Shown: positions 14,511-64,000, counted from the first letter of the stretch. The stretch is 64,000 nt of DNA from a virus (IMGVR_UViG_3300031998_000003:64001-128000), one strand, 5' to 3'. Notes: generated from the letters alone by a model not told the origin. Made by a program: numbers and translations.

Positions 14511-14883
14511 CAGATCCTGTCACAAACTGTCGATCGTTTGATATCGGGTTATTCTTTTCAGCATGATCGACCGCGTTGAAATACGTGTTGAGTGTTTCGA
14601 CTTCCTCAAACGATTGCATCGGTTTTGTAAGACCGATATCGAGATTAAGCGGTTCAATCTCTTCAGCAAGAGTCTCGTGATATTCAAAGACCGCTTCGTC
14701 TTCTGTCATTTCAATCTTGTCAAAATTGAAGAAGTGTGGTGGAAGTGAATTAATAAAATCCGCTGCAGCTTGTTCAAGGGTAACACCCAGCGGAAGTTCA
14801 CTCCGTTTGATTACATGTGTAATTTTGTCCACTCTTATCACCTTCATCAAAGTCGAGTTTAACATATCCATTATCGATTTCAC
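14437..14883 (-). CDS. Hypothetical protein
   Basis: ORF in packed operon. Confidence 0.55.
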   Translation of the reverse strand: MKSIMDMLNSTLMKVIRVDKITHVIKRSELPLGVTLEQAAADFINSLPPHFFNFDKIEMTEDEAVFEYHETLAEEIEPLNLDIGLTKPMQSFEEVETLNTYFNAVDHAEKNNPISNDRQFVTGSGDILEHHATLFEKEDDNGNSDSEE

Positions 14884-47176: not shown

Positions 47177-47264
47177 ATATGGCATAGTGGAATATACAAA
47201 CACTATTGTTGAATGCCGAATGGTTCCTGCAGCCGATAAGTGCAGGAGAAACGGAGGAATCATT

Positions 47265-50056: not shown

Positions 50057-50108
50057 CTCCACTGATTATAATTTGTCCATATGTACAACATGTATGTATG
50101 GGCAATAT

Positions 50109-50190
50109 GCTGGTATGATGGAATTGGCAGACGTGACGGACTCAAAATCTGTTGTCTTCGGACGTGTGGGTTCAAGTCCCACTACCAGCA
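50109..50190 (+). tRNA. tRNA-Leu(CAA)
   Basis: GCTGGTA/TACCAGC acceptor, loop CTCAAAA, variable arm, GGTTCAAGTCC. Confidence 0.95.
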
Positions 50191-50297
50191 CTCATCACAG
50201 GAGATGAGAGGTTCCAGCACCTCTTCGCGGTCCCTCAATGAAACTGCGTAGTTTAAGGGTAAAACCCCTGTGTTGATTCAAGGCGATGCATCGCCTC

Positions 50298-50382
50298 AGA
50301 TATGTGTAGTTGAGACGGTTACAATACCGACAAGGGCGCCCCTTGAGTCGGAGGTCGCAGGTTCGAATCCTGTCACATATCT
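50298..50382 (+). ncRNA. tRNA-like RNA with extended anticodon-less arm
   Basis: AGATATGTG/CACATATCT stem, D-like arm, CCGAC-AAGGG-CGC-CCCTT-GA-GTCGG, T arm GCAGG-TTCGAAT-CCTGT. Confidence 0.75.
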
Positions 50383-50494
50383 TCAAGATTGAGTTTCGTA
50401 TATGCTGGATGGCAGAAGCAGCCGGTTGAACGTTCCCGGTGAGCCACATGAGGGCTTCGTAGGTTCGAATCCTACAACGAAACTCTGATCTTGA
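50383..50494 (+). ncRNA. tRNA-like RNA with 10-nt central loop and long variable arm
   Basis: GAGTTTCGT/ACGAAACTC plus TCAAGAT/ATCTTGA; TGCT..AGCA D arm; GCCGG..CCGGT; GTAGG-TTCGAAT-CCTAC. Confidence 0.75.
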
Positions 50495-50569
50495 AATACG
50501 CGTAGCTGGGTTGGTTACAGCGCCCGGGCGCACCTGGGAGTACGTGGGTTCGAATCTCACCGCGTATTT
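50494..50569 (+). ncRNA. tRNA-like RNA with tetraloop in place of anticodon loop
   Basis: AAATACGCG/CGCGTATTT; GCTG..CAGC D arm; CCCGGG-CGCA-CCTGGG; GTGGG-TTCGAAT-CTCAC. Confidence 0.78.
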
Positions 50570-50591
50570 TTTATTTGAAAGGAGGATCGAT

Positions 50592-50903
50592 ATGATCCGT
50601 GTACATGCATTGAAACATGGTGATTACAATAATCAGCTTCCCGCAACGGGATGGATCTATTTACATGGAGAACTTCAGGAAGAAGCCGGTTTCGATTTGT
50701 GTCATATCGATCAAGTTCCTGAAGAAGAAGGTATCTACGATTGTGAAGTAATCCTACCGAATCATGATACCAGACAATGTAAGCTATACTACTGGAAATC
50801 AAGGCGTAGGAAGATCGATCGTGGATTGATTGTATTGGCCAATCATCCAGGTGACAATAAGTTTGCTGAGATAAAATTCAGAATTCGTTCTGACGGATTG
50901 TAA
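50592..50903 (+). CDS. Hypothetical protein
   Basis: Start MIRVHA after AAGGAGG. Confidence 0.65.
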   Translation: MIRVHALKHGDYNNQLPATGWIYLHGELQEEAGFDLCHIDQVPEEEGIYDCEVILPNHDTRQCKLYYWKSRRRKIDRGLIVLANHPGDNKFAEIKFRIRSDGL

Positions 50904-50916
50904 AGGAGATGATGAT

Positions 50917-51333
50917 ATGTCAAGTGTATATGGTGGACCTGCAGATGCAAAGCTTGAAAACGAGCTTTCTGAACCGGAAGGCGACCTGGATTGTGGTACG
51001 TCGAAAACATCTGATGACTATCGAAAATTCCGCCAGATTCAGTTCCATATGTATTGGGATGCTAGAAGCAGAACCATTCAAGAACCTGACAATATCGACA
51101 TGAAGATCTTGTATGATCTGAAACCTGAGGATCTTCTGGTTGTATATTTTGACACAAAAGATCATGGCGTCCCTGGGTTAAAACCAGATGTTATCCGCGA
51201 AGTTATGCACCAACTCAGTGAGAAGTACAAATGTAAGGTTGTTGCATTACCGTATGCAACGATGATTGCTCGGGAAGACAAAGAGACATTCACGAAGCGA
51301 CTTCAAGAGCTTATTAAATATCTCGAAGAATAA
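50917..51333 (+). CDS. Hypothetical protein
   Basis: SD AAGGAG; 138 aa. Confidence 0.65.
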   Translation: MSSVYGGPADAKLENELSEPEGDLDCGTSKTSDDYRKFRQIQFHMYWDARSRTIQEPDNIDMKILYDLKPEDLLVVYFDTKDHGVPGLKPDVIREVMHQLSEKYKCKVVALPYATMIAREDKETFTKRLQELIKYLEE

Positions 51334-51490
51334 CAGTAAATTGAGAGCGGTTGGCTTCGGCGTGAACTGTGGATTTATTGTCATAATGGAACTAATTCGA
51401 GCGGGGAGTATCGACTGCCATGCTTTGATCCCTTGGAAATAGATGGATTGTCCGATATTAGATCCTTTGAAGTTATGGTGTAAATTCGTA

Positions 51491-51623
51491 TTATTAATGT
51501 ATGCAAGTGGTCATAAGCAACCCATGTAGGGTATGAGCTTCCACACAATGTTCCGGCCGGGACTTATGTAAAACTCGCAATTGCGAGCGGGGGCTACGCG
51601 GGTTCGAATCCCGCCATTAATAA
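51491..51623 (+). ncRNA. tRNA-like RNA with ~75-nt central insertion
   Basis: TTATTAATG/CATTAATAA; D arm TGC-AAGTGGTCATAA-GCA; GCGGG-TTCGAAT-CCCGC. Confidence 0.7.
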
Positions 51624-51691
51624 TAAGCTCGACAAAGTGAAATCAATCATGAAGGGTCCGACGCCTTCATGCATCGGATATATTGATATAT

Positions 51692-51765
51692 CGGGATGTG
51701 GTGAAGTTTGGTATCACGCCACTTTTGGGAAGTGGAAGCCCAGGGTTCGAATCCCTGCATTCCGA
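51692..51765 (+). tRNA. tRNA-Pro(TGG)
   Basis: CGGGATG/CATTCCG; CCACT-TTTGGGA-AGTGG; CAGGG-TTCGAAT-CCCTG. Confidence 0.93.
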
Positions 51766-51769
51766 GTAA

Positions 51770-51818
51770 AAGGCACGTACAGCAATTCTAACGAATGAAT
51801 ATGATCGTTTGTGCCTTG
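51770..51818 (+). ncRNA. Small stem-loop RNA with TACAGCAA motif (skipping-rope-like candidate)
   Basis: AAGGCAC-GTACAGCAA...GTGCCTTG; family resemblance is from memory only. Confidence 0.4.
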
Positions 51819-51820
51819 TA

Positions 51821-51898
51821 GGTGAAGTAGCTCAGGTGGTAGAGCGTCGGGAGTGTAACTCCTGCAGGGATGTCAGGTTCGAGACCTAACCTTCACCA
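51821..51898 (+). tRNA. Atypical tRNA (possible GTA/Tyr anticodon) or tRNA-like RNA
   Basis: GGTGAAG/CTTCACC-A, canonical D arm, shifted anticodon stem, 6-bp T stem with mismatch. Confidence 0.55.
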
Positions 51899-51904
51899 TC
51901 ATTC

Positions 51905-52315
51905 CACATCAAAAGAGTAATTTCAAAAGCCGCATCCTGGAAGGGTCCAGGATGGGTAAGCTTTACCAAGGAAACCGTTGCAGTGCACAAGGATAAGAGT
52001 AATGTAGATATGCTGCAGTTCCTAGTATCGGACGGGTACGAAACCTTGGTTGCGTCATGGGCGCTAGTAAGACGCGCTCTGCCGAAATGAGCCTAAACGT
52101 AAAGCCATAGTCGAAAGGATTCATGTTTACTGCATATCTTGGACATGAATCGCAAAGTAGCTGGTAGGAAAAGGATGATACGGCATATTCCCCTAGTAGT
52201 GGCGAGCGAAAAGGGATCCACAAAAGAGCATGGGGAGCCATAGCTCCGAACACGTGCTTGCGAGTGGTTAAAAACGCCCTGGAACGGGTATGGACGGTTA
52301 TGAAATTTTGATGTG
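51905..52315 (+). ncRNA. Large (~410 nt) structured ncRNA
   Basis: CACATCAAAA/TTTTGATGTG closing stem, nested helices, long-range loop complementarities, loop-E hairpin. Confidence 0.75.
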
Positions 52316-52402
52316 AGATATGACAATGACTGTGAATTGTTCCAGACTATTTGGTTAGCGCGGGATCAGAAACGGGTTCACCAGAATAGTTCATGAGTCT
52401 AG

Positions 52403-52506
52403 ATTGTTGTGTGAGCGGGAACGCACTGGCCACCTAGCGAGCCAGGTATACCGGAGGATTCCGGCGAACATAATTGAAGTGAGACGCATAAATTACACAC
52501 AACAAT
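52403..52506 (+). ncRNA. Structured RNA, ~105 nt
   Basis: ATTGTTGTGTG/CACACAACAAT 11-bp closing stem; CTGGC/GCCAG and CCGGA/TCCGG hairpins. Confidence 0.6.
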
Positions 52507-52507
52507 T

Positions 52508-52596
52508 GGAGTCGAGACGTGATGACCGCAAGGTCAGGTGGTGTGGCGAAAGTGCGCATTCTCGTCGCACAGTGGGTTCGATTCCCACACGGCTCT
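52508..52596 (+). ncRNA. tRNA-like RNA with T arm and non-tRNA D/anticodon arms
   Basis: GGAGTCG/CGGCTCT; TGACC-GCAA-GGTCA; GTGTGGCGA/TCGTCGCAC; GTGGG-TTCGATT-CCCAC. Confidence 0.65.
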
Positions 52597-52822
52597 TCAG
52601 TATGCTATACAGCATACAGAACCAGAGTCAGGAAGTTCTTTCCTTAACACTAGATCTGTCGACGTGCGTGAATGATGAGAAATACATCAATATATCGGCG
52701 GGATGGACTGACCACAACGTTGGGCTGGATTGAATGAAATGGCGTAGGTCGGACTCGGACATGGGATCCCTATACTGTGTCCGAGAGATCGGTTATAATC
52801 CGGGAAACCGGTTTACATATAT

Positions 52823-52898
52823 GACTCGGTAGCCAAGCGGGAAGGCAGGGGTGTGCAAAACCCTGATACGTCTTGTTCGAATCAGACCCGAGTCTCCA
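52823..52898 (+). tRNA. tRNA-Cys(GCA)
   Basis: GACTCGG/CCGAGTC-T-CCA; loop GTGCAAA; bulged T stem. Confidence 0.85.
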
Positions 52899-52899
52899 T

Positions 52900-53069
52900 T
52901 AATCAGTATGATCATAGAGGATAAGGAATGATTCCGTCCAGGTCATATGAAATCGCTGATGTAGTATGATGTTCGCGGTGCCAATTCGGGTGCACACGGT
53001 TGGTTTCTGCCGGATCTGTCGGTCAGGATCACGAGGTTAACTACGGCAGTCTATGAACTATACTGATTA
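52900..53069 (+). ncRNA. Structured RNA, ~170 nt, filling the Cys-Asn spacer
   Basis: TAATCAGTAT/ATACTGATTA and TCATAGA/TCTATGA closing helices; TGTAGT/ACTACG inner helix. Confidence 0.6.
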
Positions 53070-53072
53070 TCC

Positions 53073-53148
53073 GATCCATTAGCTCAGTCGGCAGAGCAAA
53101 TGACTGTTAATCATTGGGTCGTAGGTTCAAGTCCTACAGCGGGAGCCA
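53073..53148 (+). tRNA. tRNA-Asn(GTT) with non-pairing acceptor stem
   Basis: Canonical D, anticodon (CTGTTAA) and T arms and GCCA end, but GATCCAT vs AGCGGGA. Confidence 0.75.
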
Positions 53149-53160
53149 ATAAATATTATG

Positions 53161-53200
53161 AATAAGGGGCGCTTCGGCGCCCCTTATTCTTTTTTTTTTA
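53161..53200 (+). terminator. Intrinsic terminator ending RNA island
   Basis: AATAAGGGGCGC-TTCG-GCGCCCCTTATT followed by T run. Confidence 0.9.
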
Positions 53201-53220
53201 TTATTCAAATCCTTTATCTA

Positions 53221-53230
53221 TATATTATTA
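53221..53230 (+). promoter_or_regulatory. Putative early promoter TATATTATTA
   Basis: Recurring motif directly after a terminator. Confidence 0.6.
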
Positions 53231-53301
53231 ATACGGACAAGTGAAAAAGATACTTGTCTAGAATATGTGAAAGTCCGTAAGGACATAAAGGAAGGGATAT
53301 T

Positions 53302-54432
53302 ATGATTTTTACTAAGAATTTGGCGCCTGAAATCATTGCGGCAATACAGCCGTATATTAATGCACTACGAAGTCCGGCTACTGATCTTGTGAGTTTCAAA
53401 ACTTCGGATGAGTTACTCGATTTCTGCAAACTCGTGCTACCGAAAGGTTGTTTCGAGAAGGTTACCCTTAACGGTGATGAACTTGCTGATTTCAGAGAAG
53501 ATCTGAAAGAAACCAGTGATATCAAAAACGCTGATGATGCCCTGGTTGAAAAGGAAGTGTTCCAAGTGCCGAATGATATATTTGTGGCAAATACAATTCC
53601 GCTAAAACAGCTGGATCTCGAACTTCAGGATACTGACGACGGGTTCAGTGACTGCTTCAAAATGTGTATAAATAACATGGTAACAGTCCTGCATGTGACT
53701 GACGGTGCTCCTATGGATGAAGCGTTTACTATTGAAGCAATTATCCCGATCGATCAAATTCAGGGATATATAGCACACTATCCTGGGAACGTAACCGATT
53801 TGGACTTTGTAATCGGTGCAATCAGATATGTTGAGAAGTGCAGTATTGTAAAAAATGAAGCAACTGCATTGGTTATTATGAGAAATGACTATATGTACGT
53901 CGGTGACCCGTATTTCTCGGATATAAGCGTGACAGACCTTAGAACAGGTGAGCACGTATCTATTTCAGAGTATCTTGCTGATATTGATGGTAGGATTAAC
54001 AATGGATCTCTTATTGAGTTCATGCTTAGATTACAAGATTCAATATCACGCTCTATTACAGCGTTTTACAGCGTCAATGCGGCATTGCTAAATCCAGTTA
54101 TTGTTGATGTCTATAACAATAAAACGTCACGTATACCGGATAGATCCATTACTGCAAAGAAGTCATCAAAAAGGGGTAAGATCCGGTACATTAAACGGCA
54201 TTTCATGACTGTTGATGATGTTGACAAAGCTTTCGAAAAGCGTGGCTTCGTTCGCAAAGCAATGATCTGGTACGTTACCGGACATTGGCGAGAGTACAGC
54301 AAAACTGGCAAACGAGTATTCATCCAGGGATACTGGAAGGGTGCTTTGCGAAATATGAAAGACACTGTCTTCCAGGATCTTGAGCCTCGCGAACGCGAAC
54401 TTGTTACAAAGGAGGAACCTGAAAATGTTTGA
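53302..54432 (+). CDS. Conserved phage protein with C-terminal VxGHWR...GK..FI..YWKG motif
   Basis: WYVTGHWREYSKTGKRVFIQGYWKG. Confidence 0.75.
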   Translation: MIFTKNLAPEIIAAIQPYINALRSPATDLVSFKTSDELLDFCKLVLPKGCFEKVTLNGDELADFREDLKETSDIKNADDALVEKEVFQVPNDIFVANTIPLKQLDLELQDTDDGFSDCFKMCINNMVTVLHVTDGAPMDEAFTIEAIIPIDQIQGYIAHYPGNVTDLDFVIGAIRYVEKCSIVKNEATALVIMRNDYMYVGDPYFSDISVTDLRTGEHVSISEYLADIDGRINNGSLIEFMLRLQDSISRSITAFYSVNAALLNPVIVDVYNNKTSRIPDRSITAKKSSKRGKIRYIKRHFMTVDDVDKAFEKRGFVRKAMIWYVTGHWREYSKTGKRVFIQGYWKGALRNMKDTVFQDLEPRERELVTKEEPENV

Positions 54433-54952
54433 CATAAAAATTCATGTAAGACCGCATCGAGGTGAATACCCTGCTAACATGATCCTTGACATCTATGAGA
54501 ATTCAAAGGTCCATTGGTTTGATAAAGAGGTATTCGATCTCAGTATCATGGCACCTATTGAAGAAATCGAAAAGGTGATAACAAATGTTGGGATTACCAA
54601 TTCAAAATACCTCAGAAATGCCAATCGTGATTCGGCAATCTTCATAGAGCTGTACCATCATAACTCGATACATGACGCTGCTAAAGCGGTGGGATTAACC
54701 GCTGGACGTGTTCGAGAAATTGCTGTGATGATGTTTAAAAGGTTACAACATTATGAAAGAGCTTATCGTCTATTTCCCGGGTACTTCCCGGATGAAGATT
54801 CTGCACGAAAATTCGGTAGAAAATTCGATAGACTCAGCTCGATCGAATACTGGAAAAACTATGAAGCTGAACATGGTTATTTGTCCCACTTAGGACGTCA
54901 AATACTCAGTCAGTATTCTGAAGAGGATGGTGATGATGATGACCGTGATTGA
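54425..54952 (+). CDS. Sigma-70 region-4-like HTH protein
   Basis: RDSAIF...SIHDAAKAVGLTAGRVREI...FKRL. Confidence 0.65.
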   Translation: MFDIKIHVRPHRGEYPANMILDIYENSKVHWFDKEVFDLSIMAPIEEIEKVITNVGITNSKYLRNANRDSAIFIELYHHNSIHDAAKAVGLTAGRVREIAVMMFKRLQHYERAYRLFPGYFPDEDSARKFGRKFDRLSSIEYWKNYEAEHGYLSHLGRQILSQYSEEDGDDDDRD

Positions 54953-55316
54953 ATTTAGAAAAGTATTCCTAGACTGGTATCAGTTGCAGTTCGCATTTAC
55001 CGCCAGTGAAGGAATGCTTATTGAGTCCGACGGTAATAGTGATTTCCTGTCAGGACAACTTGACATCTATGACGTACATCTTGCTGGGACTATGAAAGAT
55101 AATTCATACACAATCTGTGATCAGTCCACTAATGAGTCGATTACAGCTATGCTCGATAAGTCTACATATGACTGGCGTTGTAATAAGGATTCGCTCATTG
55201 GTATTCCAATGTTTGATTCTAAGTTACTGCAATCGATTTATGAAGACATATTTCTTGTACATTTTGCCAAAGTATATAGAGGTCATAAGGAGGAAACTAA
55301 CAATGGCATCAACTGA
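54927..55316 (+). CDS. Hypothetical protein
   Basis: ORF in packed operon. Confidence 0.6.
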   Translation: MVMMMTVIEFRKVFLDWYQLQFAFTASEGMLIESDGNSDFLSGQLDIYDVHLAGTMKDNSYTICDQSTNESITAMLDKSTYDWRCNKDSLIGIPMFDSKLLQSIYEDIFLVHFAKVYRGHKEETNNGIN

Positions 55317-55474
55317 CATCTTATTGAATGATGACGTACGGAAAGCACTCGTTGACGGAGTGTGTCCATACGTCCTGACAGGAGGTTTCAGAGCAGAACG
55401 CGAAGCCTCTGAAAGAACATGGGATATGCTCATGGAACGAGTGAAATCCAAAGAAAAACAGGAGGAAACTAAAA

Positions 55475-56491
55475 ATGGTTGAGAAAATCCTGTTCACCGC
55501 AGTCCGTCAGCCCGGTATTATCGAACACAATATTGTTGGATGGTTGTTCAATCCAACAATAATTCCGCTCGAAAAGGCATTCGAGTACGTGCGAAAGTAC
55601 AACGACATCGCTGAAGATGTAAATCTGTTTATCTACCGCACGGATGCGGAGATCATCGAAACGAATTCCGATGAGGACAACTTCGATCGAGAAATCAAAA
55701 TGAGTAACATTTATATCGGTCCTGGCGAAAGCAAATATATCCTGATCACACAGTCATGCTTGACACTGATGTATCCGGTAGATCTGGACGGTGATACAAT
55801 TCACGTTTCTAACGTGGAAGAGATTGTCACCGGTGATCCGGATCATTGGCCGTATTGGCGGTCATATACAGGTCGGGGAGCATACAATATTCGCAGCAAA
55901 TGGCTCCAACCGATGAAACATCATGCGTTTGATCGTGATCAGCTGACAAAGCTGTTCAATGATCATATCGCATCAAACGAAAAAGCGTTCGAAACGCTTG
56001 AGGATGCGATCGCAGGAACTGACGATCACGAAGTGGGGGATTTCAGATGCTGGAAGGATTCTGATGAGGAATTTTATATCCTGCATGTGCCATCCGGAAC
56101 CATCGTCGGTTGGTACAAGTTCTACCATTACGGCAGAGACAATTTTACCAACCGTGACATGACGATTGATGATCTCAAGGACTTCTTTGTACTGCTCCGG
56201 AATCAGCTCCTTGATGAGCCGGATGAACCTGATACACCGGATCCACCGAGAGTAAAAGTGACTGAGATGATTGATCAATTATGGGGTCATGTTGAAGACT
56301 GGGATGAAACCCCCAGTTATCCGGACGCACCGAAAAAGAAACCGTATAACATGGATGTTCCGGCAATCATGGAACGACTGCAGCGGAATAGTGTATACGG
56401 TATGCTTGCCGAAACTATCGGCGGTATTGACCTTGCGTCCATGTACCCGCATCATCCGGAGGAATCTCCGATCGAAGACGACGATGATTAA
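55475..56491 (+). CDS. Hypothetical protein with PolB-like motif peptides at C-terminus
   Basis: SD AGGAGG; NSVYG and DLASMYP near the end. Confidence 0.7.
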   Translation: MVEKILFTAVRQPGIIEHNIVGWLFNPTIIPLEKAFEYVRKYNDIAEDVNLFIYRTDAEIIETNSDEDNFDREIKMSNIYIGPGESKYILITQSCLTLMYPVDLDGDTIHVSNVEEIVTGDPDHWPYWRSYTGRGAYNIRSKWLQPMKHHAFDRDQLTKLFNDHIASNEKAFETLEDAIAGTDDHEVGDFRCWKDSDEEFYILHVPSGTIVGWYKFYHYGRDNFTNRDMTIDDLKDFFVLLRNQLLDEPDEPDTPDPPRVKVTEMIDQLWGHVEDWDETPSYPDAPKKKPYNMDVPAIMERLQRNSVYGMLAETIGGIDLASMYPHHPEESPIEDDDD

Positions 56492-56504
56492 AGGAGGAAG
56501 AAAA

Positions 56505-57128
56505 ATGAAAGACGAAATGAATGATATCATTCAGAAAAACATGATTTCAATGATCTCGGATATCGATATCAATCACGTTGATTACGATATCCGAATGTCG
56601 ATGATTGACTCCATGGTTAAGCTGATCGTTGACACCGTTGGTGATAATAGTCCGTCGAAAGAAGTTGTCAAATTTCTCGATCCGACCAAAGAATTTGACA
56701 TTATGAATATCGAAGCTGATATCAAAACCAGCAAGAGCAAACCTGAAAATGTAATCCTGAAGGAAGTATTGTGTTTGATGGAGCAGCTCGATCCCGCGCA
56801 ACGAACTGTCGTAATGCACTACCTCAAAACAATGTTTGTATATGATGCTAGTTTGCTGAAGGATCGCAATAGCTTTACTAAGCAATACAAGCCTATTGTA
56901 AGGGGTCTTAAAAAGTTTAAATGGGACTCCCCGTTTGTATGCCGTAAATGTAGACGGCTCTTTGACCTCGAAAAAGAGGTCGACATCATGTTTGACCTTG
57001 ACCGTCCAAGAAGATTCCCGGATTGTGATGAGACGTTGGTATATTCATTTATGTTTTCATTCACACCCATCAATCAATGGACGTGTGTCGAATGCTTTGA
57101 TCCTCATGAAGGTGAAGATGATGAATGA
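56505..57128 (+). CDS. Hypothetical Zn-ribbon protein
   Basis: Start MKDEMN after AAGGAGG; CRKC...CVEC. Confidence 0.65.
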   Translation: MKDEMNDIIQKNMISMISDIDINHVDYDIRMSMIDSMVKLIVDTVGDNSPSKEVVKFLDPTKEFDIMNIEADIKTSKSKPENVILKEVLCLMEQLDPAQRTVVMHYLKTMFVYDASLLKDRNSFTKQYKPIVRGLKKFKWDSPFVCRKCRRLFDLEKEVDIMFDLDRPRRFPDCDETLVYSFMFSFTPINQWTCVECFDPHEGEDDE

Positions 57129-57735
57129 TAGATCTGTCCTTTACGTAATATCACTACTATCGATATCATTAGTTATCGCAATATTCATATGTGGCTGTGA
57201 ATCAGCCCGGTGGAGACATCATGAGGAAAAGATAGCCACAACTACCACCACTACCGAGGAACCACTTGCAACGACAACTGAGGAAACGACAACAACAACA
57301 ACAACTACAACCACTACCACAAAGAAAACCACGACTACAACCACAACGACGACAACTGAGGAAACGACAACGACCACCACAACCGATATGAAGGACTCGT
57401 TGACATATCTCGGGTCCTTCATTGGAACCTACTTCAAGGGGGAAACGAATCCCTGTAATGGAGGTTCCGGACGAATTCTGATTCCATGTGATATCAAAGA
57501 TGATACTTACAAGGGATCAGTTGCCTCACAGTTCGTATTCAATCAATATGGTTACGAACGAAACGGAAAGACGATGATATACATTGAATTTCCCACCATC
57601 CCGGAAATGAATGGTTGGTACAGTGTTGATGATTATAACGCTGATCCATCCATAATTGATTTCTATTTCCCAGACTATTCTAAATGTCCGTGGGAAAATG
57701 ATGGTGTCATTGCGTGTAACGCATGGATTGGTTAA
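57121..57735 (+). CDS. Exported/membrane protein with Thr-rich linker and possible 3D-like domain
   Basis: Hydrophobic signal, poly-Thr linker, TY...SG...VA...YSVDD...IDFYF pattern. Confidence 0.65.
   Translation: MNDRSVLYVISLLSISLVIAIFICGCESARWRHHEEKIATTTTTTEEPLATTTEETTTTTTTTTTTTKKTTTTTTTTTTEETTTTTTTDMKDSLTYLGSFIGTYFKGETNPCNGGSGRILIPCDIKDDTYKGSVASQFVFNQYGYERNGKTMIYIEFPTIPEMNGWYSVDDYNADPSIIDFYFPDYSKCPWENDGVIACNAWIG
57238..57384 (+). repeat. (ACN)n low-complexity repeat encoding poly-Thr
   Basis: Runs of ACA/ACC/ACG/ACT; ACAACTGAGGAAACGACAAC occurs twice. Confidence 0.9.
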
Positions 57736-57925
57736 GGAGGTAAAACATGAAGACATCAACTGATGATGAAATTCGCGAAGAGGCTAAAGAACTTCGAAAC
57801 TCCAGACCGGAGTGCATGCCAACAAATGCTGAAATCGGCATGAACCTGATCAATCATCTGATTTCGCAAGGCGCACTGTCTACAAAACATCCGTTACCCC
57901 CGAAAAGCAAAAGGAGGCGAAAAAA

Positions 57926-58480
57926 TTGATTGATTACGACAGGTATCGCGAGTTCGTTCGTACGAACTGTACAGCTTCCGATGTTGTTAGAAAACGGGCA
58001 CGTGTCGGTGACATCATCGAACAGTTCGTACCGAAACTCGTTGAGAAGACAATCGAGTTCTACAATGCGACAGACGCTTACATGGAAGAAGACTGGAGTG
58101 ATCCGGATTGTCTGATGTTCACCATCGTTGCCGTAGACCACTTCGAACAAAACGGATACAGTATCGATGTTCAGTCGGTTGATGGTGTTCTGTATGATGA
58201 GACCGAAACTGATCAGCTGATCAAACTATCATTCATTGAGATTGAAGATGCTGGGCCGCGAGACAACTGGCATGATCACGACCTGTTGGAATGTGAAGAA
58301 ATCTATCTCGAGATCATGATTGAGGAAGATCGAATTTATGTGAATTCTTCCAACATCGGAGATGTGGATCCAAAAAAGTATCCGGCTATCACGAAAGATC
58401 TTAACCGTATTACACAATATTTTCAGATGATCACATCATTTGTGAATAGTAGTGTAATTATTATTACCGGAAAGGATTGA
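57926..58480 (+). CDS. Hypothetical acidic protein
   Basis: SD AGGAGG, TTG start. Confidence 0.65.
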   Translation: MIDYDRYREFVRTNCTASDVVRKRARVGDIIEQFVPKLVEKTIEFYNATDAYMEEDWSDPDCLMFTIVAVDHFEQNGYSIDVQSVDGVLYDETETDQLIKLSFIEIEDAGPRDNWHDHDLLECEEIYLEIMIEEDRIYVNSSNIGDVDPKKYPAITKDLNRITQYFQMITSFVNSSVIIITGKD

Positions 58481-58676
58481 TTTCATGAGATTGATATCAT
58501 TTACACATACCCATTGTCTGAAATCGAAAGAAGGGTATGGTCATCAATATGCAATAGTATTTGACGCTGTAGCATATGCATATCGGCATCGGAGATTGCT
58601 GAACGTATAAAGGCGTACATACAGCGAAAGCTATAATTACAGCACCCGGGAACAATACAATATTCCCGGGTGACAC

Positions 58677-58761
58677 GCTACTGTGGCGAAATTGGCATAC
58701 GCGTCAGATTTAGGTTCTGGTGTCGAAAGACATAGGGGTTCGACTCCCCTCAGTAGCACCA
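58677..58761 (+). tRNA. tRNA-Leu(TAG)
   Basis: GCTACTG/CAGTAGC-A-CCA; loop TTTAGGT; variable arm. Confidence 0.95.
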
Positions 58762-58909
58762 ATGGTCGAGTGCGGTTTTGACATTGCAAGGTGATGTCAT
58801 GTAATTCCTGCAGGTCGGCCACTCAATTGCGGTGGTGATGTATGGCATTCCATCATTATCGTGATTGATTTCCTGGTGGTTTGGTTACGCTCCTTCCACC
58901 AGGAGTTTC

Positions 58910-58983
58910 GGGCTCTTAGCTCAGTCGGTTAGAGCAGTAGACTCATAATCTATTGGTCCAGGGTTCGAGTCCCTGAGGGCCCA
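58910..58983 (+). tRNA. tRNA with CAT anticodon (Ile2-type more likely than Met)
   Basis: GGGCTCT/AGGGCCC-A; GTAGA-CTCATAA-TCTAT. Confidence 0.9.
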
Positions 58984-59044
58984 TTTAACATGAATATATT
59001 GTGAGGGGCTTAACGCCCCTCACAATATAATTTTTATGTATCTA

Positions 59045-59054
59045 CATATTATTA
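59045..59054 (+). promoter_or_regulatory. Putative early promoter CATATTATTA
   Basis: Motif variant after terminator 58996-59035. Confidence 0.5.
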
Positions 59055-59135
59055 TTACGAAGAAACCGGGTAGCAACGGTAAATATTGCTACACGCTGCC
59101 CACTGCATAAGTGTTGGGAGAATAGGAGTTTAATT

Positions 59136-59912
59136 ATGAAATTCACTGAAATTGTGGAAAAAGTTCTGCATGGCAGATCTGAATCGGTCAAATGGGATTA
59201 TCAACGTAAACACGTCACCTCTTCATGGGAAATCATTCCCAACGTCGATGAGGTGATTGGTGTTCGCCTGGTTATCACCAATGTAGGCGGTATGGATGGC
59301 GCTCGTGTTGGAGCGCTGATAAAACCGTTCTCTGATCTCCTTATGGAGATTCCAGATGATAAAGACACCATGGCTCGTCGTATCACTAATGGAAGAACAA
59401 CAGCGGCATTCTATAGTCCTGATCAAGATTGTATAGGTATGCTTCTTGATCCTATCAAGATTGTCACATCTTATATTAAAGCTCCGGATGGAGTTGACTT
59501 CACACGGTATTTCACCTGTGTGACAGAAAATGACAGCATCGTGATGTTGCCTTGGTATGTTGACAACGTCGACATCGATGAAGTCAAACGCGAAACCAAA
59601 GCGGCACTTAAACGCAACGGATATAAAGACATTCCTGATGATGCCAATATTTATGATGAGAAATTCATAAATGCATTCACCTCAACGATAGATGGATGTC
59701 TTGCATCTGGTATTATCGGTCATGAGGTGGATTCAAATATCACTCACAGCATCGAATTCAAAAATGAAAATACCGCGGTTGCAAAATGCAACGAGCATCC
59801 GTCTTCAGCAATCGATAACGCCGTCAAGCATGCAATGCTGTCTAACAGTTTGCTGCTTATCGATAACAATTGGGTTACATGGGCTGACGTTGATGAAGAG
59901 GTAAAAAGGTAA
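59136..59912 (+). CDS. Hypothetical protein
   Basis: SD AGGAG; 258 aa. Confidence 0.7.
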   Translation: MKFTEIVEKVLHGRSESVKWDYQRKHVTSSWEIIPNVDEVIGVRLVITNVGGMDGARVGALIKPFSDLLMEIPDDKDTMARRITNGRTTAAFYSPDQDCIGMLLDPIKIVTSYIKAPDGVDFTRYFTCVTENDSIVMLPWYVDNVDIDEVKRETKAALKRNGYKDIPDDANIYDEKFINAFTSTIDGCLASGIIGHEVDSNITHSIEFKNENTAVAKCNEHPSSAIDNAVKHAMLSNSLLLIDNNWVTWADVDEEVKR

Positions 59913-59924
59913 AGGGGGAAAATT

Positions 59925-60830
59925 ATGGTAGGAAAACAGACTGATCGCGAACATCTGAATGAACGTATAGCAGATCTTGAAAAGGTCATCGACATTTTGA
60001 TCGCGCTACGCGATCATCCCGAAATCGGGGAAAAGCAAATTTGTGATGAGAAAGGGATGTCTTTCACTCGCTATCGCAAATTGGCCTACGATACGGACTG
60101 GTTCGGTCCAACAAGATCGGTACATTCCGAAGAAACAACCGCAGAGAAGATGCGTAAGTTCAAGCCAACTCTGTCATGGTATCACAAGTTGTGGTGTGAA
60201 GTTATGGGTGTCGACTACCGTGATGTCACGGTATGTCCGACTGACATTGCTGAAACAATTGAATGGTTACTCGCTAACAAGCTCAATGAGCGCGAGGCAA
60301 AAGTGATTCGTCTCCGTTATGAAGACGGAATGATACTCATGGACATCGGCCATGAAATGGGAGTAACTGGAGACAGAATTGCACAGATTGAAGCCACAGC
60401 ATTTCGCAAGCTTAGATGTGCTAATGCTTGGATGCGTTTCGGTAGAAACCATTGGATCCCGATCCTGACGATTCAGAAAAATATTGAAGCCGACGCTGAG
60501 ATCTCCATAAAATATCGGGTTATGGCAGCATTGGATGACAGGATGCCTTCTCTGAGAAAGTATATCAGAGATGGTATTAAACTGGAAGAACAACAAAGAA
60601 CACAGATCGATCCGGACCTGTCGATTGACGATATGGATTTGTCGGTCAGAACATACAATTCCCTGAAACGCGGAGGAGTTCAAACTCTCGACGACCTCAG
60701 GCACATGACTGCGAGTGACCTTATGAAGATCCGCTGTCTTGGTGCCGGTGGTGTTTGTGAAATAAAAAACAAACTCGATGAATATGGTTTCAGCTTGCTT
60801 CCTGATAATGAAGATGACGATGACGAATAA
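59925..60830 (+). CDS. Sigma-70 region 4 / RNAP alpha-CTD fusion protein
   Basis: LNEREAKVIRLRY...IGHEMGVTGDRIAQIEATAFRKLR and IDDMDLSVRTYNSLKRGGV...LMKIRCLGAGGVCEI. Confidence 0.88.
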   Translation: MVGKQTDREHLNERIADLEKVIDILIALRDHPEIGEKQICDEKGMSFTRYRKLAYDTDWFGPTRSVHSEETTAEKMRKFKPTLSWYHKLWCEVMGVDYRDVTVCPTDIAETIEWLLANKLNEREAKVIRLRYEDGMILMDIGHEMGVTGDRIAQIEATAFRKLRCANAWMRFGRNHWIPILTIQKNIEADAEISIKYRVMAALDDRMPSLRKYIRDGIKLEEQQRTQIDPDLSIDDMDLSVRTYNSLKRGGVQTLDDLRHMTASDLMKIRCLGAGGVCEIKNKLDEYGFSLLPDNEDDDDE

Positions 60831-60870
60831 TTATTATTACAATCACACAATATGATATATTGTGTGATAT

Positions 60871-60963
60871 GGAGGTGTACTCAAGTCTGGCTGAAGAGTC
60901 TGGTCTTGAAAACCAGGAGGGCGTGAAAGCGTCGCAGGGGTTCGAATCCCTTCACCTCCGCCA
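60871..60963 (+). tRNA. tRNA-Ser(TGA)
   Basis: GGAGGTG/CACCTCC-G-CCA; CTGGT-CTTGAAA-ACCAG; long variable arm. Confidence 0.95.
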
Positions 60964-60969
60964 ATCTTT

Positions 60970-61097
60970 GTGGTGGTCTGTCTTGACGATATGTCGGTCC
61001 GTTTGCTCGAGCACGGGGTCTGATATATTCGTGACAAATTGAGGTAATAAACGATCGCTCGAGTGATCGCTAACATGGCAGTAGTCCTGACCATCAC
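60970..61097 (+). ncRNA. Structured RNA, ~128 nt
   Basis: GTGGTGGTC/GACCATCAC closing stem; two hairpins capped by C-TCGA-G. Confidence 0.6.
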
Positions 61098-61163
61098 CAA
61101 TCAGCTTATTGACAGCGTCAGTGTTGCCGGCTTTACATCTGGCGCTGATTAGATAAGGTGCTA

Positions 61164-61319
61164 GCATTCAGCATTGATGAGCGGGTTCCTATTGAGAGTT
61201 AAGTGTCTCCCGAATGGGATAAAGGCGCTTGGAGCTGGTTGGACTCAATTGTCCAATAAAAAGAAACTCCCCAAGATTCTAGAGTCGTAAGGATACCAGA
61301 CTGCCCCGCTAAAGAATGT
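61164..61319 (+). ncRNA. Structured RNA, ~155 nt
   Basis: CATTC/GAATG, AGCGGG/CCCGCT, CTTGG/CCAAG, TTGGAC/GTCCAA helices. Confidence 0.5.
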
Positions 61320-61335
61320 AAAAACGGTTCAATTT

Positions 61336-61406
61336 GCACGTGTAGTTCAATGGTAGAATACCAGCCTTCCAAGCTGGGTACGTGGGTTCGATTCCCATCA
61401 CGTGCT
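61336..61406 (+). tRNA. tRNA-Gly(TCC)
   Basis: GCACGTG/CACGTGC-T; CCAGC-CTTCCAA-GCTGG. Confidence 0.95.
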
Positions 61407-61408
61407 TA

Positions 61409-61486
61409 TGATAAACTTCCTTAATTGACCCAGTTCAGTTTGGACGGGGATTGCAGTTCTAATTACCGTCTGCAAGAAGTTTATCA
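61409..61486 (+). ncRNA. Structured RNA, ~78 nt
   Basis: TGATAAACTTC/GAAGTTTATCA 11-bp stem; TTGCAG/CTGCAA; GACGG/CCGTC. Confidence 0.55.
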
Positions 61487-61495
61487 GTTTCTTCA

Positions 61496-61643
61496 GGATA
61501 GGTGCGGCATAGTGTTGGTAACAGCACAGGCCAGTTTCTCGAGTTCTCTCTGCGTCTAATAAGACGCACGCTGCAGACTGGGTGTATGGGCTTTGAGAGC
61601 GTCGAAAGACGAAATGGACCCACATGCTCGAGAGCACCTATCC
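61496..61643 (+). ncRNA. Structured RNA, ~148 nt
   Basis: GGATAGGTGC/GCACCTATCC; GTGTTG-GTAA-CAGCAC; TCTCGAG/CTCGAGA; TGCGTCT/AGACGCA; CGTC-GAAA-GACG. Confidence 0.65.
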
Positions 61644-61649
61644 AGATAC

Positions 61650-61723
61650 TGGGGTATCGCCAAGGGGCAAGGCATCAGACTTTGACTCTGACATCGTAGG
61701 TTCGAATCCTGCTACCCCAACCA
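61650..61723 (+). tRNA. tRNA-Gln(TTG)
   Basis: TGGGGTA/TACCCCA-A-CCA; TCAGA-CTTTGAC-TCTGA. Confidence 0.95.
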
Positions 61724-61765
61724 TCGTGGATATCCACGACTTCACCTTCTTATTGTAGTGGATTT

Positions 61766-61806
61766 GGGGCGCCTTTCGGCGCCCCTCTTCCCTCATTTTT
61801 TTTTTT
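61766..61806. terminator. Terminator between convergent units
   Basis: GGGGCGCC-TTTC-GGCGCCCC plus T run. Confidence 0.8.
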
Positions 61807-61808
61807 GA

Positions 61809-64000
61809 TTAGATCTCATCCCAGGTGTTCGTATTCGGATTAAATACTTTCAATTTAGAACGTCCATCTGCAGGTTGTTCAACAACAAGCGTTCTGTAAG
61901 AAACATTGTCACCAAGTTCATTTAGGATTGAACTTTGATCAACCGGGATATTTGTTCCTCTGATGACTTGCATTCTGACAGGTTTCATTGTAGAATTTGT
62001 TGATGCGTTTTTGAATGAGAACGAATGGACTTGTGGGAATACGAGTTCCCATGCACCAATAGGTCCTTTATCGACTGATGGAATTGACATCGATGAATCA
62101 TTGTAGAAATACATGAAGTCTGGTTGTTGGTAAATCGGATTCTGATCTTCACCAGCACGCGCATATACTGGAGAATTTGTCAGAATATTCCAATTCAACA
62201 TACCAGCTGATTCATTATACAATGGAGTCATGTCAGTCACACGATGATTGTTTGCATCAAGTATCTCAATATCGTTCCATTTGAATGGTGTCCTGACAAC
62301 CTGTAGCTCACGAGTTTCTTCGTCGAGATAGTATGTCTCATGTACTGTTGCTAACGGATTGAAAGCCCACACCATAGGACCGATCAGTGGGGCATTCCAC
62401 ATGATCATTGTTCCAGAATTTGTGTGAACAAACTTCTTATTCACAAGATCATTATCTGGGAGATATGACAATGTGTCTGTCGTAAATAGATTGTTGAACG
62501 AACGTCTGATGATTCCGTATTTGAATGACTTGTTAGACGCAACATGCTCATTATCCCATTTCCAGAATATCGTCACATCGAAATAGTCTTTACCAGCCGC
62601 TTTCAATGCATCAATGACTCCCTGTTGCGATTTCGTTTCAGCAATCAGTGTGCCGAATTCACGACAATAGAGCTTATTGATATCGACTACTGTTCGTCCA
62701 CCCAGATTATTTGCCGGAAGCATTGCTGGTGTTGCAGTTGTATCAATAATGTTGATACATGATCCTGTCTGAAGAACCTTCAGTTTTGTTTCAGGACGTT
62801 CTGCTGCATACTGTTGGACTTGCAATTCTCTGACGGATGGTATCAGCGTGTTAACGAACGCATCTCTGACTGAAATACCGGATTCCGATGTCACATCAGA
62901 TTCATTTATCTCTGAGATTTGTTGCAGCGGTCGCCAGCCCAGATTATGAATTACATCATATTCATAGAACCAGATACCAGTCTTTTCTTTAACGAATGCA
63001 TACAAACCTTCAATGATTTTACCACGTCTCGGAAGCAATTCCTGATAGTCGTTGATGAATAATTTCACCTTCAAACCAGTTCCAACAGTCGTATCATTTG
63101 GAGATGTTCCATAAGTCTTGGTGTATCCGTTTTGAGCCGGATCCATATCAAAGTTTGCAATTGACATAAGCTGATCAGGTGGTGCGAGACCGACATCCGT
63201 TACGCCGCCATTATCGTTCACAGAAATGACGTGATATTCGAATGCACATCCACCAACTATGATTTGTCCTGATGATCCAACCTCGTAATGTTCTCCCATA
63301 CTCACAATACCATCCGAAGGAATGATCACATTTTCTGGATCAACCATTGCGTTCAGATTCTCGTAAGTTCTGAAATCATTGTACACGCTCATATCGACTG
63401 CCTTCAGATTTTCAACGGAGTCGAAAATGAATCTGTTTGATTGAACATATTTCGGTGTCAAACCTGGTTCCGTATAAATCGGGGTGTCAGTATTGTCACG
63501 ATGGATCGGACGAACCCATCTGTCACGAACACCGTTGTACAGGCGATACAAATCATTTTCTGTGAATGGTGCTTCTGTGCGAACGTATTTCTTATCAACA
63601 ACGGATACCGGTGCAATACCGTGGATGTTGGAAAGCTGAACGACAGATGTCGGGATGTCGCAAATACGTGCAATTGTACGAGCCGGTTTGGGTTGTTTCA
63701 ATTTCGCATTATTACGATATTCCAGATCATCGTTTGAAAGAACATACACACGACCGATTTCTTCGGTCGGAATGTCTGCAGCTGAACGAGGTGGTGTCAC
63801 TTCTTCGATGTAATCGAATTCGATACGAACTTTCAAACCGACACCTTTTGCATCTGTATAATGCGTGTATGGACTTGGATCAGGATTGTAACCACCATGA
63901 TCTTCCATTCCAGCATCAGGATCGGCACTGTTGCGCGCTTCGACAAGAAGCCATTCCGGATATCTGTAGGTTACCCACGCCGTACTGAGTGATTCACCCA
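61809..64000 (-). CDS. Large probable virion (tail/baseplate) protein, 5'-truncated by window edge
   Basis: At least 699 aa, frame open to 64000; beta-rich with GTGLKV-type motifs. Confidence 0.6.
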   Translation of the reverse strand, partial: GESLSTAWVTYRYPEWLLVEARNSADPDAGMEDHGGYNPDPSPYTHYTDAKGVGLKVRIEFDYIEEVTPPRSAADIPTEEIGRVYVLSNDDLEYRNNAKLKQPKPARTIARICDIPTSVVQLSNIHGIAPVSVVDKKYVRTEAPFTENDLYRLYNGVRDRWVRPIHRDNTDTPIYTEPGLTPKYVQSNRFIFDSVENLKAVDMSVYNDFRTYENLNAMVDPENVIIPSDGIVSMGEHYEVGSSGQIIVGGCAFEYHVISVNDNGGVTDVGLAPPDQLMSIANFDMDPAQNGYTKTYGTSPNDTTVGTGLKVKLFINDYQELLPRRGKIIEGLYAFVKEKTGIWFYEYDVIHNLGWRPLQQISEINESDVTSESGISVRDAFVNTLIPSVRELQVQQYAAERPETKLKVLQTGSCINIIDTTATPAMLPANNLGGRTVVDINKLYCREFGTLIAETKSQQGVIDALKAAGKDYFDVTIFWKWDNEHVASNKSFKYGIIRRSFNNLFTTDTLSYLPDNDLVNKKFVHTNSGTMIMWNAPLIGPMVWAFNPLATVHETYYLDEETRELQVVRTPFKWNDIEILDANNHRVTDMTPLYNESAGMLNWNILTNSPVYARAGEDQNPIYQQPDFMYFYNDSSMSIPSVDKGPIGAWELVFPQVHSFSFKNASTNSTMKPVRMQVIRGTNIPVDQSSILNELGDNVSYRTLVVEQPADGRSKLKVFNPNTNTWDEI

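Follow-up and report, generated by a model that had tools for sequence, protein, structure and literature searches.

Why does a jumbo phage carry four stretches without open reading frames (ORFs), in which transfer RNA (tRNA) genes alternate with strongly folded spacers, and what do these spacers encode? The question is raised by IMGVR_UViG_3300031998_000003:64001-128000, a 64,000-nucleotide (nt) stretch of viral DNA (hereafter the window), whose four ORF-free islands (50.06-50.59, 51.33-53.30, 58.61-59.13 and 60.83-61.81 kb) hold, all on the plus strand, ten canonical tRNAs, five tRNA-shaped RNAs that cannot decode and about 12 folded domains that are not tRNAs. We consider the best explanation, at a probability of roughly 0.7, to be that the islands are tRNA operons with plus-strand RNA genes selected for their folds, which would be cut out as discrete stable RNAs in the manner of rnaC and rnaD of phage T4. 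Besides the ten tRNAs, these genes comprise the five non-decoding tRNA shapes, one permuted tRNA shape (unit A), several closed domains of 50-225 nt and an RNA of about 543 nt with a 3' module (Table 1).

The window represents bases 64001-128000 of a 248,669-bp IMG/VR virus record that is about 92% complete, and all 12 tRNA calls made by ARAGORN genome-wide fall within 50.1-61.8 kb of it. Nearly identical DNA is present in metagenomes of the bovine gut, and related DNA in those of goats and other gut sources; the source is an uncultured ruminant-gut jumbo phage. For comparison, 11 related stretches were gathered, L009 and L011-L015 through an anchor protein; the relatives L016/L018, L019, L021 and L022 were reached through conserved RNA words, and L102 is a 16.9-kb contig from a metagenome-assembled genome (MAG), fully syntenic with the window. 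The protein genes of the relatives are 70-95% identical to those of the window, and the binning of L102 in a Bacteroidales MAG gives a weak hint at the host. Among the 24 sequencing runs listed as holding the sequence, none is of RNA; four DNA runs were mapped and yielded strain variants and cassette polymorphism only. When the islands were compared by BLAST with 50,697 phage records, only tRNAs matched.

Coding potential and folding of the islands

The longest frames in the islands (41-121 aa) lack a credible counterpart in Pfam or PHROG, where phrog_11762 (E 0.004) was the one match, and no island frame is kept across the relatives. On these two grounds a protein-coding reading of the islands was rejected, and the statement of the preliminary description that they lack credible ORFs was borne out. 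The phrog_11762 match falls in a 109-codon frame (52404-52733, plus strand) that overlaps the core of the large RNA and is not kept in relatives; the family could itself have arisen from false ORF predictions made across similar RNAs of other phages. Just 5' of island 3 lies a 41-codon ORF (58485-58610, plus strand) with a plausible ribosome-binding site, 81% identical in L102 over 84 nt, which may be a real small gene.

On the plus strand the spacers are more stable than dinucleotide shuffles (z -2.1 to -6.1): the Leu-Met spacer reaches z -5.97, against -2.66 on the minus strand, the Gly-Gln spacer -5.19, and the rest mostly -2 to -4, the exception being 51334-51690 taken as one piece (z -0.5). 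A cmscan of the islands against Rfam listed no non-tRNA family with a meaningful score even at E<=5; the units match no Rfam family other than tRNA. The folding excess and the absence of known families, both anticipated by the preliminary description, thus stood. Its geometry fared less well: nearly every inter-tRNA spacer had been described as closed from end to end by a stem of its own, and this holds for two of the eight whole spacers (Pro-Tyr and Cys-Asn) and fails for the others. The Leu-Met spacer consists of three tandem hairpins rather than one closed unit, the Tyr-Cys spacer of a multi-domain RNA of about 630 nt followed by a 225-nt module, and in the Ser-Gly spacer the conserved closed unit is confined to the first 130 nt. 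The other closed units are subdivisions of spacers, with limits picked after the fact. End helices that are rare in shuffles span 11 bp in 52899-53073, 61407-61490 and 51486-51630, 10 bp in 61491-61649 and 8 bp in 51767-51820. The individual examples quoted earlier held up, with an 11-bp helix closing 52900-53069 (P=0.003 by shuffling) and helices of 11 and 10 bp closing 61409-61486 and 61496-61643, respectively. Comparative support extends to about 12 units, short of the 15 or more distinct non-coding RNAs that had been proposed.

Selection on the folds

Covariation in homologs was found both as double-changed pairs in the large RNA and as compensatory changes in smaller units, with compensatory or wobble-preserving changes in unit A, the leader hairpins and units E, G, H1 and I. 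Identity to L102 is 90.8% for the non-tRNA units (n=1648) and 54.1% for the four-fold degenerate sites of seven neighbouring genes (n=758), the figures for L021 being 92.7% and 64.2%; the identity of the units to L102 is similar to that of codon positions 1-2 and of the tRNAs. No better conserved than synonymous sites are 51334-51487 (about 78%), B2 at the sequence level and tl3. The Alifold energy is lower on the plus strand for every unit and an opposite-strand reading breaks pairs, so the folds operate in RNA of the tRNA strand and not in DNA. Judged by covariation, by the strand asymmetry of G-U pairs and by a change far slower than that of synonymous sites, the spacers are real plus-strand structured RNAs under purifying selection.

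Unit A takes the shape of a circularly permuted tRNA, with a T-like arm, a closed acceptor-like hairpin, a D-like arm and paired ends; with its middle hairpin opened and its ends joined by an artificial loop, it was called as a tRNA by ARAGORN at the default threshold. Across relatives it is 88-98% identical by MAFFT and 93-99% by BLAST, and its three loops are almost invariant in relatives whose flanking tRNA-Leu is 72-89% identical. The closing stem and two hairpins covary, with 10 compensatory, 11 kept and 3 broken pairs on the plus strand and 13 broken when read on the minus strand. In L014 (9380-9453) and L015 (1105-1178) an inserted tRNA-His separates tRNA-Leu(CAA) from unit A; unit A therefore keeps its place directly 3' of whichever tRNA precedes it.

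tRNA-shaped RNAs that cannot decode

The 7-nt anticodon loop on a 5-bp stem that decoding requires is lacking in tl1, tl2, tl3, B2 and 52508-52597, and in the last two other hairpins stand in place of the anticodon arm. ARAGORN and Rfam between them marked abnormal anticodon regions in tl1-tl3, a T arm at 51597-51614 and a weak tRNA-Sec-like match at 52514-52595; the scores of tl1 and tl3 exceed the RF00005 gathering threshold of 29 bits. In tl1 the acceptor, D and T arms are kept and the "anticodon" arm is a hairpin of 10-13 bp with a 3-nt loop; the RNA is 79-100% identical in six relatives, this extended arm being its best-conserved part. tl3 is about 80% identical in L011, L012 and L022, with 2 compensatory, 4 kept and no broken pairs, and tl2 was found in this genome alone, with no homolog in the relatives, its cassette being replaced or missing in metagenome variants (joints 50384->50567 and 50386->50565).

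In B2, about 75 nt of hairpins occupy the site of the anticodon arm, and the T arm matches the 3' end of transfer-messenger RNA in Rfam. Its acceptor-like stem is maintained by five different sequences in six genomes, its CTCGC/GCGAG inner hairpin and T stem covary, and its 11-bp end helix is rare against shuffles (P<0.001). A promoter-like match (51467-51494) coincides in part with the acceptor stem of B2, which covaries, and was rejected as probably due to chance. The non-decoding RNAs would most likely serve to occupy host factors that bind tRNAs, for example processing or modification enzymes or a tRNA-directed defence, and this assignment belongs to the least certain part of our account.

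Smaller units and the operon frame

In unit C, all 16 substitutions relative to L016 lie outside the seven stem pairs. Unit E is 92-93% identical in L019, L021, L022 and L102 (8 compensatory, 13 kept and 1 broken pair) and absent from L009, L015 and L016. Unit F, 87-97% identical in three relatives, always lies 3' of tRNA-Cys, and the tRNA that follows varies (Asn, Lys, Ser or Leu). Unit G shows 3 compensatory, 14 kept and 1 broken pair on the plus strand and 11 broken when read on the minus strand, and its central hairpin is recognisable in L009 with a different sequence. Two inner hairpins of unit H1 carry compensatory changes (alignment A11, read by eye), the whole Ser-Gly spacer folding with z -2.55. 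Unit I1 differs from L102 by one compensatory pair and one wobble-conserving change, and I1 and I2 together count 2 compensatory, 3 kept and 0 broken pairs on the plus strand versus 3 broken on the minus strand.

These units sit in what looks like an operon frame. At the start of islands 1, 3 and 4 stands a TATAAT-like box, followed by a conserved hairpin that ends 2-4 nt short of the first tRNA, and strong terminator hairpins stand 3' of the Asn, Met and Gln tRNAs of islands 2, 3 and 4; transcription of island 1 may continue across two small genes and enter island 2. In seven relatives, one-sided changes in the island 1 leader hairpin keep a pair 14 times and break one once, and the CCCGGG/CCCGGG stem of the island 3 leader becomes CTCGGG/CCCGAG in L021, a compensatory change.

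Boxes of TATAAT/TATTAT with T-rich bases precede the leaders at 50062-50072, 58631-58642 and 60831-60841 (TAATTTG, TAATTAC and TATTACA), and in relatives the box region reads TAATATTTC and TAATGTTTC. The -7 promoter element of Bacteroidetes is TAnnTTTG. By sequence the boxes resemble this element, which fits the Bacteroidales MAG bin of L102; a sigma-70 promoter scan performed no better than shuffles. Between islands 3 and 4 lies the gene of a 301-aa protein (59925-60830, plus strand) with sigma-70 region 4 (PF04545, 1.2e-12) and the C-terminal domain of RNA polymerase alpha (PF03118, 7.6e-17), which lacks sigma region 2 and for which a word-based search of viral contigs gave no relative.

Table 1. 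RNA features of the four islands (positions in the window; z against dinucleotide shuffles)
Feature	Position	Strand	Remarks
Island 1 leader hairpin	50073..50105	+	just 5' of tRNA-Leu(CAA); z -3.6 (+), +0.2 (-)
tRNA-Leu(CAA)	50109..50191	+	ARAGORN; Rfam 49 bits
Unit A	50192..50276	+	85-nt four-way junction
Short GC hairpin between unit A and tl1	50281..50296	+	minimum free energy fold; kept in most relatives
tl1	50300..50381	+	tRNA shape; Rfam tRNA 47.6 bits; no ARAGORN call
tl2	50393..50485	+	type-II tRNA-like; anticodon loop about 10 nt; ARAGORN gives odd 4-nt anticodon
tl3	50495..50569	+	tRNA-like; 4-6-nt anticodon loop; Rfam 41.9 bits
B2	51488..51628	+	tRNA-like, 141 nt; acceptor-like stem, D-like arm, T arm
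tRNA-Pro(TGG)	51691..51766	+	ARAGORN, Rfam
Unit C	51767..51820	+	AAGGCAC/GTGCCTT-closed hairpin; z -3.0; 8-bp end helix, P=0.03
tRNA-Tyr(GTA)	51821..51898	+	ARAGORN; Rfam 33.7 bits; 97% identical in L016
Large RNA core	51965..52507	+	multi-helix, about 543 nt; about 23 predicted helices
3' module of large RNA	52508..52597	+	tRNA-like, 90 nt; 7-bp acceptor, one long hairpin, T arm
Unit E	52598..52822	+	multi-hairpin module, 225 nt; closer relatives only
tRNA-Cys(GCA)	52823..52898	+	ARAGORN; Rfam 46.7 bits in E-value run, not listed in gathering run
Unit F	52899..53073	+	175-nt domain; 11-bp terminal helix, P=0.003; z -2.1
tRNA-Asn(GTT)	53074..53148	+	ARAGORN, Rfam
Intrinsic terminator, end of island 2	53160..53199	+	13-bp stem then T10
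Island 3 leader hairpin	58643..58672	+	z -6.1 for 58611-58676
tRNA-Leu(TAG)	58677..58761	+	ARAGORN, Rfam
Unit G	58762..58909	+	three G-U-rich tandem hairpins; z -5.97 (+), -2.66 (-)
tRNA-Met(CAT)	58910..58983	+	ARAGORN, Rfam
Terminator-like hairpin, end of island 3	58995..59029	+	15-bp stem
Island 4 leader hairpin	60842..60868	+	z -4.0
tRNA-Ser(TGA)	60871..60963	+	ARAGORN, Rfam
Unit H1	60972..61101	+	stem-closed domain, first third of Ser-Gly spacer; 83-89% identical in L009, L021, L102
Rest of Ser-Gly spacer	61102..61335	+	poorly conserved; 62% match to L018 only
tRNA-Gly(TCC)	61336..61406	+	ARAGORN, Rfam
Unit I1	61409..61486	+	domain closed by 11-bp helix, P=0.003
Unit I2	61496..61643	+	multi-branch, closed by 10-bp helix, P=0.003
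tRNA-Gln(TTG)	61650..61723	+	ARAGORN, Rfam
Hairpin, GC-rich stem and T11 run, end of island 4	61724..61810	+	z -5.75

Proposed processing and the spacer alternative

How, then, would such operons release their RNAs? Islands 1, 3 and 4 would be transcribed from the -10-like box and its 5' hairpin, and transcription of islands 2-4 would stop at the terminators. By analogy with tRNA processing and with T4, host RNase P would cut 5' of all tRNAs and tRNA-like elements, and RNase Z, RNase E or exonucleases would trim the remaining ends. Each non-tRNA unit has a tRNA or tRNA-like element 0-11 nt 3' of it, so that RNase P could define the 3' end of the unit. The terminal helices, lying 0-8 nt from the neighbouring tRNA, would then stop exonucleases, and each domain would survive as a stable RNA, as rnaC and rnaD do in T4.

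Several points weigh against this reading. Identity at four-fold sites ranges from 0.41 to 0.91 among the neighbouring genes, because recombination makes divergence patchy, and for each unit taken singly this makes the rate comparison less telling. Some parts (tl2, 51629-51690, 51334-51487 and 61102-61335) are lineage-specific or change at the synonymous rate. Gains and losses of units separate even close relatives, so that no unit is indispensable. Because the Alifold structures derive from the alignments themselves, their proportion of kept pairs is too high; the large RNA taken alone has a modest z of -2.05. The 249-kb phage genome encodes no Ro/TROVE protein, RtcB or CCA-adding enzyme, so that no partner is indicated. 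Finally, we infer the transcription, the cleavage sites and the stability of the units throughout.

A different reading would let the spacers work in cis only, insulating the folding of the tRNAs, setting the order of RNase E, RNase III and RNase P cleavage, shielding the precursor from exonucleases and then being degraded. It accounts for the position of every unit between same-strand tRNAs, for the 5' leader hairpins, which look like stabilisers, for the loss of units without loss of the flanking tRNAs, and for stems that change more slowly than loops (31 substitutions in 128 paired versus 34 in 98 unpaired columns of unit E; 20 in 118 versus 17 in 58 for unit F). Insulation, however, needs a fold and not a sequence, yet loops are strongly conserved, as in unit A; tRNA shapes whose elbows are intact and a 543-nt RNA of some 23 helices go far beyond what a spacer needs; and the tRNA operons of T4 and of bacteria work with spacers of 1-50 nt. 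We therefore regard a purely cis-acting role as unlikely.

The large RNA

Returning to the reading of the islands as operons of excised RNAs, its largest product would be the RNA at 51965-52597. Alignment A4 (8 sequences, 68-92% identity) defines 134 pairs in 26 helices, and 96.3% of its cells are paired. Double changes occur in 39 of the 134 pairs, whereas column shuffles give 13.4 +/- 2.6 (none of 500 reached 39) and controls with partners slid by 1-3 columns give 2-8; in one helix (columns 312-345) four pairs show two or three pair types each. The tRNA-like 3' module is joined to the closing helix of the core without a linker in all relatives; it matches tRNA-Sec weakly (22 bits), and its helices 24-26 covary.

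Two loops of the large RNA offer a candidate long-range pairing, GATATGC/GCATATC (52006-52012 with 52133-52139); near the same places L009 reads AACAAG/CTTGTT, which would be compensatory, although the alignment is uncertain there and the pairing was not predicted by RNAalifold. A hairpin at 52187-52216 (up to 52155-52216) resembles H13 of 23S rRNA, being 90% identical to Escherichia coli and 90-94% to Bacteroidales; the match covers 30 nt in Rfam (E 0.048 in the wider run, 0.23 in the run of 51899-52822) and at most about 60 nt by BLAST. L012 and L022 carry it with a 16-nt insertion, L021 has a mutated version and L015 has none. A mimic of 23S rRNA domain I was rejected, since only the H13 hairpin matches and it is variable or absent in relatives; the hairpin has the look of a loop-E module, captured or convergent, that is peripheral to the RNA.

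The scans of viral contigs and species genomes place the large RNA in one phage clade only. A pattern sought in 185,579 species genomes matched 69 times, in all but one case by chance, and the match in viral contig L023 was likewise due to chance; a first, earlier pattern had matched nothing; among 400 sampled Bacteroidales genomes the RNA appeared on a phage-like contig only, the remaining matches being the genomes' own 23S H13 hairpins.

Could the large RNA belong to ROOL or GOLLD as a strongly diverged member instead of forming a class of its own? Rumen habitat, phage carrier, tRNA-island position and size class are alike, and L015 lacks the 5' 100 nt or so with the 3' core kept, which recalls the variable 5' and conserved 3' parts of GOLLD. 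Against this, neither family was listed when 51899-52822 was compared with all 4227 Rfam models (cmscan with permissive filters, E<=10), nor in the cmscan of a 12-kb region and of two relatives, and we hold such membership to be very unlikely. Both ROOL and GOLLD have recently, it is reported, been found to form RNA-only cages. The large RNA would most likely act as a self-folding particle of their kind, which again belongs to the least certain part of our account.

Modular content of the islands

Not every relative has tl2/tl3, 51334-51690, unit E and unit I, each of which is missing or replaced in part of the set, L102 for instance lacking 51334-51690; judged by this distribution, the units are modular cassettes and not a fixed array. 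No second copy of any unit was found in the 249-kb genome. A MITE-like element (miniature inverted-repeat transposable element) was considered for the terminal helices and rejected, as no unit is repeated and the G-U-reliant pairing works on the plus strand only.

Homing-endonuclease genes of the HNH type (HNH_3 and NUMOD4) lie in island 2 of L015 (2605-3693) and of L102 (6114-7349), and a 630-aa HNH-domain protein is encoded in the window at 47187-49079, two genes 5' of island 1; such genes may drive the turnover of island cassettes. In L102, a truncated 5' half of tRNA-Gln (14544-14576) follows unit I ahead of the intact tRNA-Gln, a recombination scar.

The least probable reading of all, that the spacers are functionless debris of decayed tRNA genes, recombination scars and homing-endonuclease or other mobile remnants, draws on this mosaic content, on the unique tl2 and the replaced or deleted tl2-tl3 cassette, on the HNH-NUMOD4 genes and truncated tRNA-Gln, and on the near-synonymous rate of 51334-51487, but debris should drift at that rate and lose its pairing, whereas the units stand at about 91% versus 54% at four-fold sites, frequently change compensatorily, pair strand-specifically and, being never repeated, form no MITE-like family, so that on comparative grounds it already fails for the units with covariation.

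Comparison with known systems

tRNA-like modules or tRNAs at the ends of long RNAs are familiar from mascRNA on MALAT1 and from mitochondrial tRNA punctuation. The large RNA shares with these a tRNA shape directly after a long RNA, so that an RNase P cut would make the 3' end; they differ in being eukaryotic, and cleavage at 52508 is a prediction only. Unit A has the arm order of the YrlA Y RNAs (T-like arm, closed acceptor-like hairpin, D-like arm) and, like them, ends that pair at the place of the anticodon stem (PMC4201824). It differs in a T loop of 8 nt rather than 7; Rfam gave no match for unit A, and the Ro-binding motif GNCGAAN0-1G is absent from the closing stem of the window copy.

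ROOL and GOLLD are large RNAs of phages and prophages, often found within or beside tRNA islands (PMC5737381). ROOL averages 581 nt and was first found in cow rumen, and GOLLD, to which tRNAs can be linked, has a variable 5' part and a conserved 3' part (PMC5737381; bioRxiv 10.1101/2024.12.08.627333). The large RNA has the same many-helix build, phage carrier, tRNA-island position and rumen habitat, lying as it does between tRNA-Tyr and tRNA-Cys in a phage of the bovine gut; it differs from both in matching neither covariance model and in ending in a covalently joined tRNA-like module. One might go further and picture 51965-52597 as a new ornate phage RNA class beside ROOL and GOLLD, a self-assembling higher-order particle with a tRNA-like handle, and the neighbouring cassettes (anticodon-less tRNA shapes, permuted tRNA, stem-closed domains) as an exchangeable toolkit of rumen-Bacteroidales jumbo phages against tRNA-directed host functions; we offer this wider picture as a doubtful one.

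Phage T4 provides the nearest frame. Its species 1 and 2, stable RNAs of a phage tRNA cluster, have been known for some fifty years with no function assigned. The T4 record gives rnaC (species 1, 139 nt) and rnaD (species 2, 119 nt) with eight tRNAs and segB inside the cluster; a gap of 1 nt separates tRNA-Arg from rnaD, and rnaC comes 6 nt beyond. Both clusters thus hold non-tRNA RNAs within a few nt of same-strand tRNAs, and that of T4 likewise encloses a homing-endonuclease gene. Folded here from the T4 record, rnaC has a terminal stem, a canonical T arm and a large insert, which is the build of B2; a terminal acceptor-like stem and T arm around a non-tRNA insert are found in B2 and in 52508-52597, and a position inside a phage tRNA cluster abutting a same-strand tRNA is common to all units. 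Rfam and BLAST, beyond which no search was made, gave no sequence homology to rnaC or rnaD. T4 has two such units and the islands have about 12 over four operons, and the RNA of about 630 nt, the permuted tRNA shape and the anticodon-less tRNA shapes lack a counterpart in the two of T4.

To call this an undescribed RNA system, as the preliminary description did, was therefore an overstatement, given that rnaC and rnaD abut tRNA-Arg in T4 and that ROOL and GOLLD lie near tRNA islands: the spacer RNAs enlarge a class that goes back to phage T4. In this jumbo phage about 3 kb of conserved RNA genes go unlabelled under standard annotation, and the locus offers an unusually dense set of such RNAs, with clear comparative support for their folds and a natural series of presence and absence, while the large RNA fused to a tRNA-like end suggests a concrete and testable route for excision from tRNA precursors. 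What stands out here, beside T4, ROOL and GOLLD, is the density of the units and the large RNA.

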